From NCBI GenBank assembly GCA_964384945.1, contig CAYLMK010000001.1, forward strand, positions 125,859 through 189,858: a stretch of 64,000 nucleotides of DNA. Direction: 5' to 3'. Each line of letters starts with the position of its first letter. Position 1 is the first letter of the stretch. The position numbers and the translations under genes are program-made. The notes under the pieces were generated by a model, which worked only from the letters and a program-made list of their open reading frames with translations, made no database searches and was not told where the DNA came from. Source of the DNA: an uncultured Thermodesulfobacteriota bacterium. Lineage in GTDB: Bacteria; Desulfobacterota; DSWW01. Shown piece after piece: positions 9,699-41,532 of this stretch.

Positions 9699-9774
9699 GG
9701 GGATGTAGCTCAGCTGGGAGAGCACCACGTTCGCAACGTGGGGGTCGGCGGTTCGAATCCGCTCATCTCCACCA
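9699..9774 (+). tRNA. tRNA-Ala (anticodon CGC)
   Basis: GGGGATGTAGCTCAGCTGGGAGAGC...anticodon loop TTCGCAA...TTCGAATCC...ACCA. G3-U70 wobble in the acceptor stem (Ala identity element). Encoded CCA. Confidence 0.85.
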
Positions 9775-28237: not shown

Positions 28238-28312
28238 TGGCTGGGGTGGGAGGATTCGAACCTCCGAATGCAGGAGCCAAAGTCCTGTGACTTACCGCTT
28301 GTCGACACCCCA
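28238..28312 (-). tRNA. tRNA-Gln (anticodon UUG)
   Basis: Minus-strand read TGGGGTGTCGACAAGCGGTAAGTCACAGGACTTTGGCTCCTGCATTCGGAGGTTCGAATCCTCCCACCCCAGCCA. Anticodon loop CTTTGGC. Close match to E. coli tRNA-Gln1. Confidence 0.85.
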
Positions 28313-38206: not shown

Positions 38207-38773
38207 TCACCCTCCATCCGGACCCGTGTCGCTCCGGCTCGAAGAGGTCTGCCCCCCGCCCTTCGTCTTCTTTCCCTTCGGCGAATCCCCTTCGGCCGGA
38301 TACCCCGCCTCCCTCCACTTCTCCCAACCGCCCCAGAAGACCTTCACCTGCGTGTAGCCTTCTTCTTTCAGCAATTCGGCCACATCCCGGCTCGTCTCGC
38401 AGCTTCCTCCGCCGCAGTAGGTAACCAGAAGGGTGTCGAACGGGATGAGCGTCGTCCAGGAGGAGAGGGCCTCTTCGAAATCTTCCTTCGGCAGCAGGAG
38501 CGCCCCCGGGATATGGCCGGCGGCGAATTCCTCTGCGGAGCGGGCATCGACGAAGATAGCCTTCCGCTCCCTGTGCAGGACCCAGACTTCATCCAGCCCG
38601 ACTTCCTCGATCCCCTTCGTGTCCGGCCTCGGGACCGGCCCGAGCAGGCCCAGGCCGCGGGGAGAGAGGGCGTTGGAGAGCACCCCGAGCAGGGCGCCGG
38701 TCAGAACGATCAGAAAACCCCGCCTTGCAGATGCAGCAAAGGCAGGAATGTCAAGAAACAATCGACCGCTCAA
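38207..38773 (-). CDS. membrane-anchored rhodanese-like (sulfurtransferase) domain protein
   Basis: N-terminal TM anchor. Rhodanese active-site loop YCGGGSCETS (catalytic Cys). Confidence 0.75.
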   Translation of the reverse strand: MSGRLFLDIPAFAASARRGFLIVLTGALLGVLSNALSPRGLGLLGPVPRPDTKGIEEVGLDEVWVLHRERKAIFVDARSAEEFAAGHIPGALLLPKEDFEEALSSWTTLIPFDTLLVTYCGGGSCETSRDVAELLKEEGYTQVKVFWGGWEKWREAGYPAEGDSPKGKKTKGGGQTSSSRSDTGPDGG

Positions 38774-39252
38774 CGTTCGGATTCTCCTACGCAGTCCCGC
38801 CGGGGCCGCCCCCTCAGCGGGGAACCACGGTCCTCCGGCTCTCTACGCATCCGAGGCTACAGGATAGCAAAAAGTGCATCGCACAGAAAGCCGGAAGGCA
38901 CGTGGCGGCCCTTTACTTTTCGCAACGGCTGTTGTAATATTTTTTACAATGGAAATCAACAGGTTATGACATACTCGCGGGGGATATCCCGATCGACAAG
39001 GTATTCGGCAACACCCTCGGTCTCAAGCCCAGCCAGCATACGAGGATTCAGCGAATCTACCGGAGGCGGATCCCTCTCGCACAGATATGCACACCCGAAC
39101 TCGCCCGCTACCTGTCCGAAATCTCCTGGGAGGTCGGCAGGCAGATCGGCATCCTGGTCGACCGCAGAGGCTACATCCAACAAGTAGTCGTCGGAGACGC
39201 CAAGCAGGTAGTTCTGCCCGACCGGAAGCGATCCAGGTCTGCTGCCGGTCGA

Positions 39253-40788
39253 TTGTCCGGCATTCGGTACATACATACCCACCTCCGGCCGGAGCCCTTG
39301 AGCGAGGAAGACCTGGCCGATTTGTCCCTGCTCAGGCTGGACTGCGTGACCGCCATCGAAGTCGGCCCCCAGGGCCTTCCACAAAGGCTGCATGTCGCCT
39401 TCCCCGCCCCGGACGGCGCTTCGGAAGCCCCCTGGGACATCCGGAAGCCCCTTTCGGCGGCCGAGGCGGCCGAGATCGATCTGCTTGCCCTGATTCGCGA
39501 CCTGGAAAGGGAACTGGCGCGTACGACACCCTTTTCCACCGAGACGCGCGCAGGGGCCGGGCCCCAAAGGGCGATTCTCGTGGGCGTCGCCCTCGGGGAT
39601 GTCGGCGAGGCCGAGGAATCGCTGGACGAGCTCAGGTCCCTGGCCTGCTCCAGCGGCGTCACCGTGCTCGACACCCTCCTGCAGCGGAGGCCCTTCCTTC
39701 ACCCCCAGTTCATCGTCGGCAAAGGGAAGCTCCAGGATCTGGTCATCCAGGCCTTGCAGAAGGGGGCCGAGATGATCATCCTCGACCACGATCTGACCCC
39801 GAATCAAATGCGATGCATCACCGATTTCACGGAGATCAAGGTCCTCGACCGCACCCAGTTGATCCTGGACATCTTCGCCCAACGGGCAAAGACGCGGGAC
39901 GGTAAGATCCAGGTCGAACTTGCGCAGCTTCGGTACCGGCTTCCGAGGCTTCTTCACCGCAACACCGGATTGTCCCGGCTCGCGGGCGGGATCGGCGGCA
40001 CCGGGCCGGGGGAGACAAAGCTCGAGATCGACCGACGCAGGGTGCGGGACAGGATTCACCGCCTCGAGAGGCAGGTCGAGAGGCTTCGCAGGGAACGCAG
40101 GACCCGCCGGGCCCGCCGCAATGAGAGCGGGCTTCCCCTGGTATGCCTGGTGGGCTACACCAACGCCGGAAAATCGACCCTGCTGAACACGCTGACGCAA
40201 AGCAACGTGTACACGGAGAACCGGCTCTTCGCGACCCTGGATCCTGCAACGCGCAGGCTCCGGCTCAACGGAGGCCGCGAGATCCTGGTCACCGACACGG
40301 TGGGATTCATCCGAGATCTCCCTGGCGACCTCATCGCGGCCTTCCTGGCCACGTTGGAGGAGCTGCGCGATGCCGATCTGCTGGTCCATGTCATCGACGG
40401 CGCTTCGGATCGCTGCGAGAAGCAGCTGGAGGTCGTCGAGGATCTGCTGGACACGCTGGAGCTGGGGCGCATTCGCACGTTGCGGGTCTTCAACAAGGCC
40501 GATCGGGCCGCCCCGGAGAGGCTGAGCAATCTGTGCCGCCGATATCAAGGCATCCCGATCTCAGCCCTGGACCCGTCCACCCTGACGGCCCTTCTTGACA
40601 GGCTGGAATCCCTGCGGGTCACGGGCAACGGAGTCTCCCCGCTGAAGACGGCCTCGGGCACGGTTCGCGCCGCTCCCTCGGGGTCCGGCCCCTGCCCGGG
40701 ACGGAATTGGGAAGAACCGGTGCGTGCCGATTGCGATCGAACGAGATGGATCACGGAGACGGGCGGGAGGGGTAGCCGAGCACCTTGA
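39253..40788 (+). CDS. hflX: GTPase HflX (with about 110-aa non-canonical N-terminal extension; TTG start; true start may lie upstream)
   Basis: HflX N-domain (RAILVGV...LILDIFAQRAKT...GKIQVELAQLRY), G-domain (GYTNAGKSTL, DTVGF, NKAD). The in-frame region 38936-39252 is coding-like (high GC3) but has no ATG/GTG/TTG. Confidence 0.8.
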   Translation: MSGIRYIHTHLRPEPLSEEDLADLSLLRLDCVTAIEVGPQGLPQRLHVAFPAPDGASEAPWDIRKPLSAAEAAEIDLLALIRDLERELARTTPFSTETRAGAGPQRAILVGVALGDVGEAEESLDELRSLACSSGVTVLDTLLQRRPFLHPQFIVGKGKLQDLVIQALQKGAEMIILDHDLTPNQMRCITDFTEIKVLDRTQLILDIFAQRAKTRDGKIQVELAQLRYRLPRLLHRNTGLSRLAGGIGGTGPGETKLEIDRRRVRDRIHRLERQVERLRRERRTRRARRNESGLPLVCLVGYTNAGKSTLLNTLTQSNVYTENRLFATLDPATRRLRLNGGREILVTDTVGFIRDLPGDLIAAFLATLEELRDADLLVHVIDGASDRCEKQLEVVEDLLDTLELGRIRTLRVFNKADRAAPERLSNLCRRYQGIPISALDPSTLTALLDRLESLRVTGNGVSPLKTASGTVRAAPSGSGPCPGRNWEEPVRADCDRTRWITETGGRGSRAP

Positions 40789-41338
40789 GCAAGTGAGGCC
40801 GAAGATCTTCGGTCGTGTAGGGCTTGTCGATCACCGCCTCCACCCCCAGGGAGAGCAGCGCCTGCATCTTTCCGCCCGGGACCTTTTCGTTGAGAACAAT
40901 GACCTTCGTCCCCCGGACCTCCGGGATTCTTTGAAGGGCGCGGCAGAACCTCACGATTTCCTGAGCCTTCGGGATCGTCCCGAGGATCACCAGCTCCGGC
41001 CGCAACAACCCGATTTGAACCCCGCTCTCGTATAGGTCCTTGGCCACAAAGACCTTGTAGGCATCGGACGATCTTCGTAGAATCTGTTTCAGGAGCCCTT
41101 CCAGGAGCCGCTTTGTCTCGACAACGAGGATCTTCTTCTTCTCGCCGCCGGCCTTGACTGAAAAAGGGATCTGGTAGCGCTCCAGGAAACGGACCAGGTC
41201 CGCCTCCCGGACCCGGCGGTGCCCTCCCGGGGTGCGAAACGAGGTCAGTTTGCCTTGATCCACCCAGCGGATCACGGTCCGAAGTGAGACCTTGCACACC
41301 TTGGCCAGGTCCACCGTCGTATAGATGCGCTCGGTCAT
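40751..41338 (-). CDS. MerR/excisionase-type HTH protein with C-terminal pseudo-receiver domain
   Basis: N-terminal HTH (YTTVDLAKVCKVSLRTVIRWVDQGKL). The C-terminal CheY-like fold has ET in place of the DD acid pocket and G in place of the phospho-acceptor Asp (LVILGTIP). Confidence 0.6.
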   Translation of the reverse strand: MTERIYTTVDLAKVCKVSLRTVIRWVDQGKLTSFRTPGGHRRVREADLVRFLERYQIPFSVKAGGEKKKILVVETKRLLEGLLKQILRRSSDAYKVFVAKDLYESGVQIGLLRPELVILGTIPKAQEIVRFCRALQRIPEVRGTKVIVLNEKVPGGKMQALLSLGVEAVIDKPYTTEDLRPHLLKVLGYPSRPSP

Positions 41339-41532
41339 GGGTCCGGCATCTCCCTCGTTGAAGGCCTCGGCCGAAGATCTTCCCATCCATTTCCCCCTTC
41401 CCCTTCGACATGCGGCGGGCTTTTCTTTAGCTTTCGGGGTTTTTCAAAGGACGGCCGGGGAAACCCCCGGCACCGGAGGGATTGCGGGGAGGGGGAAGGG
41501 CCGCATCGCCCGGGGGCACGGGGGAGAGAAAT

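Follow-up and report, generated by a model that had tools for sequence, protein, structure and literature searches.

The window analysed here is a 64,000-nucleotide (nt) stretch of an uncultured Thermodesulfobacteriota bacterium (GCA_964384945.1, contig CAYLMK010000001.1, positions 125,859 to 189,858 of the forward strand), and the subject is the start of its hflX gene, whose open reading frame runs on upstream of the first canonical start codon. All coordinates are those of the window. The features of hflX and of its 5′ region are as follows.

38912..38940, + strand: promoter-like block, recognised by conservation (-35-like TTTACT at 38912-17, 17-nt spacer, -10-like TAATAT at 38935-40)
38938..40788, + strand: hflX open frame of 616 amino acids (aa), open from 38938 after TAA 38935-37 to TGA 40786-88
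38949..38969, + strand: six-codon open reading frame beginning with ATG (MEINRL-stop), inside the predicted 5′ leader, in a frame that differs from that of hflX
38979..38984, + strand: Shine-Dalgarno (SD)-like GGGGGA, which holds the G5 run 38979-83 (-8.6 kcal/mol, 7-nt spacer to ATC 38992)
38992..38994, + strand: ATC, proposed hflX initiation codon, putatively decoded as formylmethionine (fMet) and aligned with the Met of MKKVFGN-type homologs
38992..40788, + strand: proposed complete hflX coding sequence (598 codons plus TGA)
38992..39525, + strand: N-terminal domain, JAB/MPN-like in fold and about 178 aa long, motif E...H-T-H-x6-(S/T)-x2-D
39253..39255, + strand: TTG, first canonical start-capable codon, here an internal Leu (SD -3.2 kcal/mol)
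39568..40608, + strand: HflX core (GTP-bdg_N, GTP-bdg_M and MMR_HSR1 GTPase domains; TIGR03156, PF13167, PF16360, PF01926)

The first in-frame ATG, GTG or TTG of the hflX frame is TTG 39253 (codon 106), and the 105 codons ahead of it are without a canonical start, as an earlier note on this DNA had reported; called from that TTG, the product would be 511 aa long. In the same note the frame was described as open back to 38936 (it is open, from 38938), the conserved segment RAILVGV was placed 113 codons after the TTG (it begins at residue 211, which is 105 codons after), and a 6-codon out-of-frame ATG reading frame was described, which exists, at 38949-38969 rather than at 38946-38966. A strong bias in GC content at third codon positions (GC3) had been taken there as the signature of a coding sequence; GC1/2/3 of the startless stretch is 0.59/0.44/0.68 and GC3 deeper in hflX is 0.78-0.82, so that the bias is moderate only, and since the upstream intergenic DNA gives 0.70 for GC3 in an arbitrary frame, GC3 alone is not decisive. 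With hflX's own in-frame ATG/GTG/TTG frequency of 3.5%, the chance of 87-105 codons without a canonical start is about 0.02-0.04, and the length of the startless run is thus unusual, not extreme. The run is more than chance because the codons from 38992 on encode a real, conserved domain on which purifying selection is strong: against four close relatives, dN/dS (the ratio of non-synonymous to synonymous substitution rates) has a value of 0.05 between 38992 and TTG 39253 (87 codons) and of 0.10 over 150 codons, and in this the earlier view of the upstream frame as truly coding was borne out.

The core of the protein was identified by TIGR03156 at 433.4 bits (cut-off 216.75), in a match that takes in residues 211-557 out of the 616 in the open frame, with matches to PF13167, PF16360 and PF01926 that all exceed their gathering scores, and the nucleotide-binding motifs G1, G3 and G4 are intact in the translation (GYTNAGKST, DTVGF and NKAD). 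The score against PRK11058 was 314.7 (cut-off 441) and the match was confined to profile positions 9-321 of 426, which indicates that the C-terminal domain of E. coli-type HflX is missing from the window HflX. What the window protein has in common with E. coli-type HflX, the ribosome-splitting GTPase (TIGR03156/PRK11058), is thus the set of core domains and G motifs, whereas the window HflX has an additional folded N-terminal domain of about 178 aa, a domain that the earlier note had rightly held to be absent from the E. coli-type protein. In the window, 40609-40785 encode the C-terminal ~59 residues of hflX, which lie beyond the TIGR03156 match, are rich in Gly, Pro, Arg and Ser and have no family match.

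A homology search with residues 1-210 of the open frame returned HflX proteins of Myxococcota, Nitrospirota and "delta" metagenome-assembled genomes (MAGs) at 38-79% identity. The homologs of the N-terminal domain have the invariant motif GRLxGxRxIHTHL..EPL(S/T)xxDLxDLxLLRLD in common, and all invariant residues of the domain are kept in the window HflX. A profile of the domain matched 1344 cluster representatives in a library of 1.8 billion proteins (1011 at E <= 1e-10); at least 590 species genomes encode a fusion of the domain with HflX, and the best species-genome match to the window, among the matches listed, has 53% identity. An AlphaFold model of the 178 residues from 38992 has a pLDDT (predicted local distance difference test) of 91 and its first beta-strand at residues 4-6, so that the fold begins at the N-terminus encoded from 38992. 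The 18 codons 38938-38991 are not conserved as protein, and the 8 codons directly upstream of 38992 have neither amino acids nor much sequence in common with the four close relatives; judged by this comparison, the 18 codons are a 5′ leader.

When the whole protein was scanned against Pfam and NCBIfam at E <= 1, nothing matched within residues 1-210, and a sequence-profile search of the PDB with the alignment of the N-terminal domain gave a chance match only. The domain was assigned by fold comparison alone, in which the predicted model was recognised as an MPN fold; sequence identity to JAB1/MPN/JAMM domains (PfJAMM1, AfJAMM, Rpn11, BRCC36, RadC and Cap3) is 7-13%. The family motif (E/D)...H-T-H-x6-(S/T)-x2-D is one residue shorter than the canonical JAMM motif E...HxH-x7-S-x2-D, the spacing being x6 between HxH and Ser instead of x7; all members keep the first His and the Asp, and at least 90% keep the second His, which is replaced in some. 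Speculatively, the fused domain might be catalytically active on a ribosome-associated substrate. A literature search found no paper describing a JAB/MPN-like domain fused to HflX. As a separate observation, two predicted proteins (P0022, 1090 aa; P0023, 869 aa) have an N-terminal LptE-like lipoprotein domain (PF04390) followed by 4-5 tandem degenerate JAB/MPN-like copies, in which the His-Thr-His motif is mostly lost (IRSNLS, IYTNGN, IHTQFG), which places the JAB/MPN-like domain also outside HflX, apparently as non-catalytic repeats; and one long-form HflX (P0135, 859 aa) has a match to the DnaJ J-domain C-terminal to its GTPase core (PF00226, E = 2.4e-5, just under the gathering score).

For comparison of the 5′ regions, 85 loci were collected: 80 from species genomes (L002-L081), four metagenomic relatives (L082-85) and the closest contig in the European Nucleotide Archive (L001). 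In homologs that have a canonical start the N-terminus reads M-(K/Q/R)-x-(V/I)-x-G-N-T-x-G-L-K, and their Met aligns with ATC 38992 of the window (P-I-D-K-V-F-G-N). Five alignments were re-registered by one codon before the final codon count; at the first registration there were 50 loci with ATC, ATT or ATA (collectively ATH, or AUH in the mRNA). With the window excluded, the final count at the aligned position was ATC 28, ATT 21, ATA 7, ATG 17, TTG 8, GTG 3 and CTG 1, which makes the ATH share 56 of 85 loci (57 of 86 with the window). A codon incapable of starting translation was found at this position in none of the 85 loci: GTC, GTT and GTA were absent, and CTG was the sole Leu codon of the CTN type and occurred once. 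A codon set restricted in this way to start-capable codons is not the behaviour of an ordinary hydrophobic residue position. No in-frame canonical start was found back to the upstream stop in 29 of 50 ATH loci, in four loci (L024, L025, L027 and L038) the stop codon directly abuts the ATT or ATC (AAGGAGGAATAA ATT), and the median position of the next canonical codon in ATH loci is 32 codons into the domain.

The AUH start of long hflX spans Acidobacteriota, Thermodesulfobacteriota, Nitrospirota, Entotheonella and other MAG lineages. Judged from the aligned loci, ATC, ATT or ATA with a strong SD is the majority state of the long-HflX family across several phyla and is apparently ancestral. Standard gene callers accept ATG, GTG and TTG only. 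Among the 150 best-matching predicted proteins, 52 start at profile position 1, 61 are extended upstream of it and 37 start inside the domain, and the upstream-extended predictions have Ile at position 1 in 27 of the 57 that could be placed; by this count the N-terminus would be wrong in about two thirds of the best-matching predicted proteins of the family.

SD strength was scored as the energy of the duplex with the anti-SD sequence over positions -20 to -4, with the following result for the three start classes.

ATH class, 50 loci: mean -9.5 kcal/mol, 88% at or below -6
GTG/TTG class, 9 loci: mean -6.6 kcal/mol, 56% at or below -6
ATG class, 16 loci: mean -1.05 kcal/mol, 0% at or below -6

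In the Ile-codon loci the SD site precedes the start by 6-9 nt. A neighbour-joining tree requires a minimum of 7 switches from ATH to canonical starts or back, and a minimum of 11 when all three start classes are distinguished, and the SD-less ATG pattern appears in at least four separate clades, among them Pyrinomonadaceae, Anaeromyxobacteraceae and Desulfobacterales. As far as these duplex energies go, the family as a whole trades start-codon strength against SD strength. Of the 17 ATG-type loci, 10 have a -10-like hexamer whose end lies 11-17 nt ahead of the ATG (L011, L033, L048, L064, L022, L036, L037, L056, L065 and L081); it is a perfect TATAAT in four Pyrinomonadaceae loci, three of them with a preceding TGT (TGTTATAAT), and TATGCT, TAGACT or TAAACT amid DNA of 70-76% GC in the Anaeromyxobacteraceae. 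A -10-like hexamer so near to the ATG, without an SD, points to very short leaders, predicted at about 4-10 nt, and suggests near-leaderless hflX mRNAs in the ATG-type lineages.

In the closest relatives of the window the same layout was found. The closest contig (L001) has 83% nucleotide identity to the window, and L001 together with L082-84 has 76-82% aa identity (76-78% for L082-84); the codon aligned with ATC 38992 is ATA in all four. The equivalent of the SD site stands 6 nt upstream of this ATA and is a G7 run in L001 and AGGAG in L082-84. In L082-84 the start is preceded, at a distance of 8 codons, by an in-frame TAG that corresponds to a TAT of the window, and the first canonical start is codon 64; the frame of the window thus happens to stay open through the 18 leader codons. 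L082-84 share the promoter-like block (CCCTTTACTTTTC...CGGCTGT.GTAA.ATTTT), and the -10 position of L001 reads TATAAT. From this block transcription is predicted to start at about 38946-49, which would give a leader of about 44 nt. Folding of the leader (38946-39030) gave no significant structure (z = 0.52), and Rfam gave nothing at E <= 1 in 38700-39300 and nothing at gathering score near hflX.

The 6-codon frame in the leader is probably incidental, to judge from the relatives. A same-frame upstream ATG is found at -43/-46 in 4 of 5 clade members (the window; L082 and L083, -46/-43; L084, -46), near the predicted transcription start, and the frames that it opens have 6 codons in the window and 21 and 30-31 codons in L082-84, where they overlap the hflX start; L001 has no ATG anywhere in the leader region. 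A second ATG of the window, at 38966, is in the third frame. The SD energies of the other candidate starts in the window are 0 kcal/mol for ATG 38949 and -3.3 kcal/mol for both ATG 38966 and ATA 38971.

From these comparisons it is highly probable that translation of hflX starts at ATC 38992-94, and the product is then most likely a 598-aa protein, MPN-HflX, made of the ~178-aa JAB/MPN-like domain and a standard HflX GTPase core. Initiation at a near-cognate Ile codon was not among the options of the earlier note, and it is what the comparative data point to; the alignment with related hflX 5′ regions that the note had proposed as a check found the upstream region conserved, and not orthologs that start at or after the TTG. 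Three of the features that mark an infC-like gene are present in the window hflX: a conserved N-terminus without a canonical start, only start-capable codons at the position, and an SD at functional spacing.

Several points weigh against an ATC start. The SD of the window is a G-run and not GGAGG, and an equally good score is reached by 6% of random positions in this window, which is GC-rich; the window SD alone is thus modest evidence, and the weight of the argument lies with the family-wide pattern. The 80 loci from species genomes represent the most window-like of at least 590 and no random sample, and they are phylogenetically related. The association of SD and start codon rests on about 7-11 independent changes and not on 85 data points. 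A consensus promoter scan of 38650-39100 called nothing, the block being missed because it agrees with only 8 of 12 consensus positions, and promoter and transcription start were placed from conservation only.

Four other explanations were weighed. The first is initiation at another in-frame near-cognate codon, ATA 38971 (adding 7 residues) or ATC 38986 (adding 2 residues), both of which lie ahead of 38992 in the open frame and are AUH codons; for L001 such an upstream choice was made by its gene caller, which used an in-frame TTG five codons before the ATA. This is very unlikely, as neither position is AUH in the relatives, protein conservation starts at 38992, and the G-run comes after ATA 38971 and ends only 2 nt before ATC 38986 (-4.5 kcal/mol).

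The second is a miscount of the G5 homopolymer 38979-83 in sequencing or assembly, a class of error that is common: ATG 38966 stands in a neighbouring frame, and with six Gs it would be joined to hflX and become the start (MTYSRGDIPIDKVFGN...). This indel at the true start, one of the options of the earlier note, is very improbable on the evidence of the four close relatives, which were assembled independently, have AGG or AGA in place of ATG 38966 and no ATG that could be joined, and have the same startless Ile-codon layout; L082-84 carry the in-frame stop described above, the SD energy of ATG 38966 is poor, and the five residues gained before DIPIDK are not conserved.

Held to be equally improbable is a start at TTG 39253, the first canonical in-frame start and the choice of standard gene callers, with the upstream 105 codons as the decaying remnant of an N-terminal extension. 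The TTG encodes the Leu (L88 counted from ATC 38992) of GRL in the invariant motif GRLxGxRxIHTHL, in the middle of the fold, so that a start there would delete about half of the folded domain; its SD is weak, and with a dN/dS of 0.05 upstream and every invariant residue retained, neither decay nor the frameshift inactivation of the extension that the note had considered fits the stretch.

Least credible of all is a programmed event, also an option of the note, in which a -1 frameshift or termination-reinitiation would join the 38949-69 frame or ATG 38966 to the hflX frame: the recurrent same-frame ATG of the clade speaks for it, but no slippery heptamer (X XXY YYZ) was found in 38966-38992, ATG 38966 is absent in the relatives, the upstream frame varies in length and overlap (none in L001), the leader is without significant structure or Rfam match, and the family-wide pattern of SD and ATH codon requires no such event.

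The genes around hflX, which is monocistronic, are as follows.

38207-38773, - strand: rhodanese gene, divergent from hflX
40751-41386, - strand: helix-turn-helix/receiver gene, convergent with hflX

The 3′ end of hflX and the convergent helix-turn-helix/receiver gene share 38 nt, and genes for MutS2 and a MauE/DoxX protein are located further upstream of hflX. The only Rfam matches at gathering score in the 64-kb window are two tRNA genes, at 9699-9771 (+) and 28241-28312 (-). The infC gene was sought in the 64-kb window for comparison of start codons and is absent from it.

The mechanism proposed for the AUC start is as follows. The G-rich SD GGGGGA (38979-84), 7 nt upstream, would position the 30S subunit, and the initiator tRNA would read ATC 38992-94 as fMet. 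In E. coli reporters AUA, AUC and AUU yield 1-2% of AUG and the N-terminal residue is still Met (bioRxiv 10.1101/063800), and an ATC start was proven by N-terminal proteomics for dnaA of Deinococcus (PMC2830850). Selection would appear to hold initiation on the hflX mRNA weak. AUU, AUC and AUA are the codons against which initiation factor 3 (IF3) discriminates, and the AUU or AUC start of infC underlies the autoregulation of IF3 (PMC5499595); by analogy with infC, initiation on hflX would probably be sensitive to IF3 proofreading, and HflX output might rise when initiation fidelity falls or IF3 is limiting, e.g. under stress or with immature 30S subunits. Assembly-defective 30S subunits bind IF3 poorly and escape start-codon proofreading (PMC6868393), and IF3 also inhibits leaderless mRNAs (PMC9031893), so that the short SD-less leaders of the ATG-type loci, as predicted, would fit the idea of IF3 sensitivity. 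The two 5′ designs of the family, a strong SD with AUH and an SD-less AUG on a very short leader, are both of classes suppressed by IF3 in E. coli, from which it could follow that MPN-HflX is made when IF3 proofreading is overwhelmed. An IF3-linked regulation of long-form hflX is put forward tentatively, and plain selection for low expression fits the trade-off between SD and start codon equally well.

The closest parallel is infC, likewise a translation-factor gene with an Ile-codon start that is conserved across phyla behind a functional SD (PMC5499595, PMC2830850). The infC gene is regulated by its own product, in a loop that was shown experimentally, whereas the hflX case is known here from sequence and HflX is no known start-codon proofreader; unlike infC, about a third of the long-hflX family has reverted to ATG or NTG, with loss of the SD. 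In pcnB (E. coli, AUU), dnaA (Deinococcus, ATC) and ebpA (Enterococcus, ATT) an AUH start sets or regulates low expression, and gene callers placed their starts wrongly too, until alignment or N-terminal proteomics put them right (PMC2830850, PMC4447247); these cases are limited to a genus or family, whereas the AUH start of hflX spans phyla. No paper that connects hflX with AUU or another non-canonical start came up in a literature search. In Listeria, expression of hflXr (lmo0762) is coupled to the state of the translation machinery via its 5′ region, by transcription attenuation through ribosome stalling on a leader open reading frame; compared with this, the hflX leader of the window is without a conserved leader frame, terminator or structure. 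Mycobacterial HflX has an N-terminal extension of 39-58 aa, found predominantly in actinobacteria (PMC12493154), which contributes to the disordering of 23S rRNA in ribosome splitting (PMC12493154, PMC11831132); it is likewise an N-terminal addition to HflX, but the domain of the window protein is globular, JAB/MPN-like and about 178 aa long.

Few bacterial genes are known with AUU, AUC or AUA starts, infC being the classic one, and hflX would be the second gene of the translation machinery with an infC-like signature across phyla. The mis-called N-termini hide a conserved domain of about 178 aa, and the MPN-HflX architecture bears on how HflX variants split or remodel ribosomes. The repeated evolution of the trade-off between start codon and SD makes the tuning of ribosome-quality factors by near-cognate starts testable. 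It is conceivable, though doubtful at present, that long-form hflX is a built-in sensor of the fidelity of translation initiation, MPN-HflX being made when IF3 proofreading is overwhelmed or evaded, for instance through an excess of 30S subunits, through immature ones or under stress; if true, infC would be joined by a second feedback loop that is linked to IF3 and deeply conserved.

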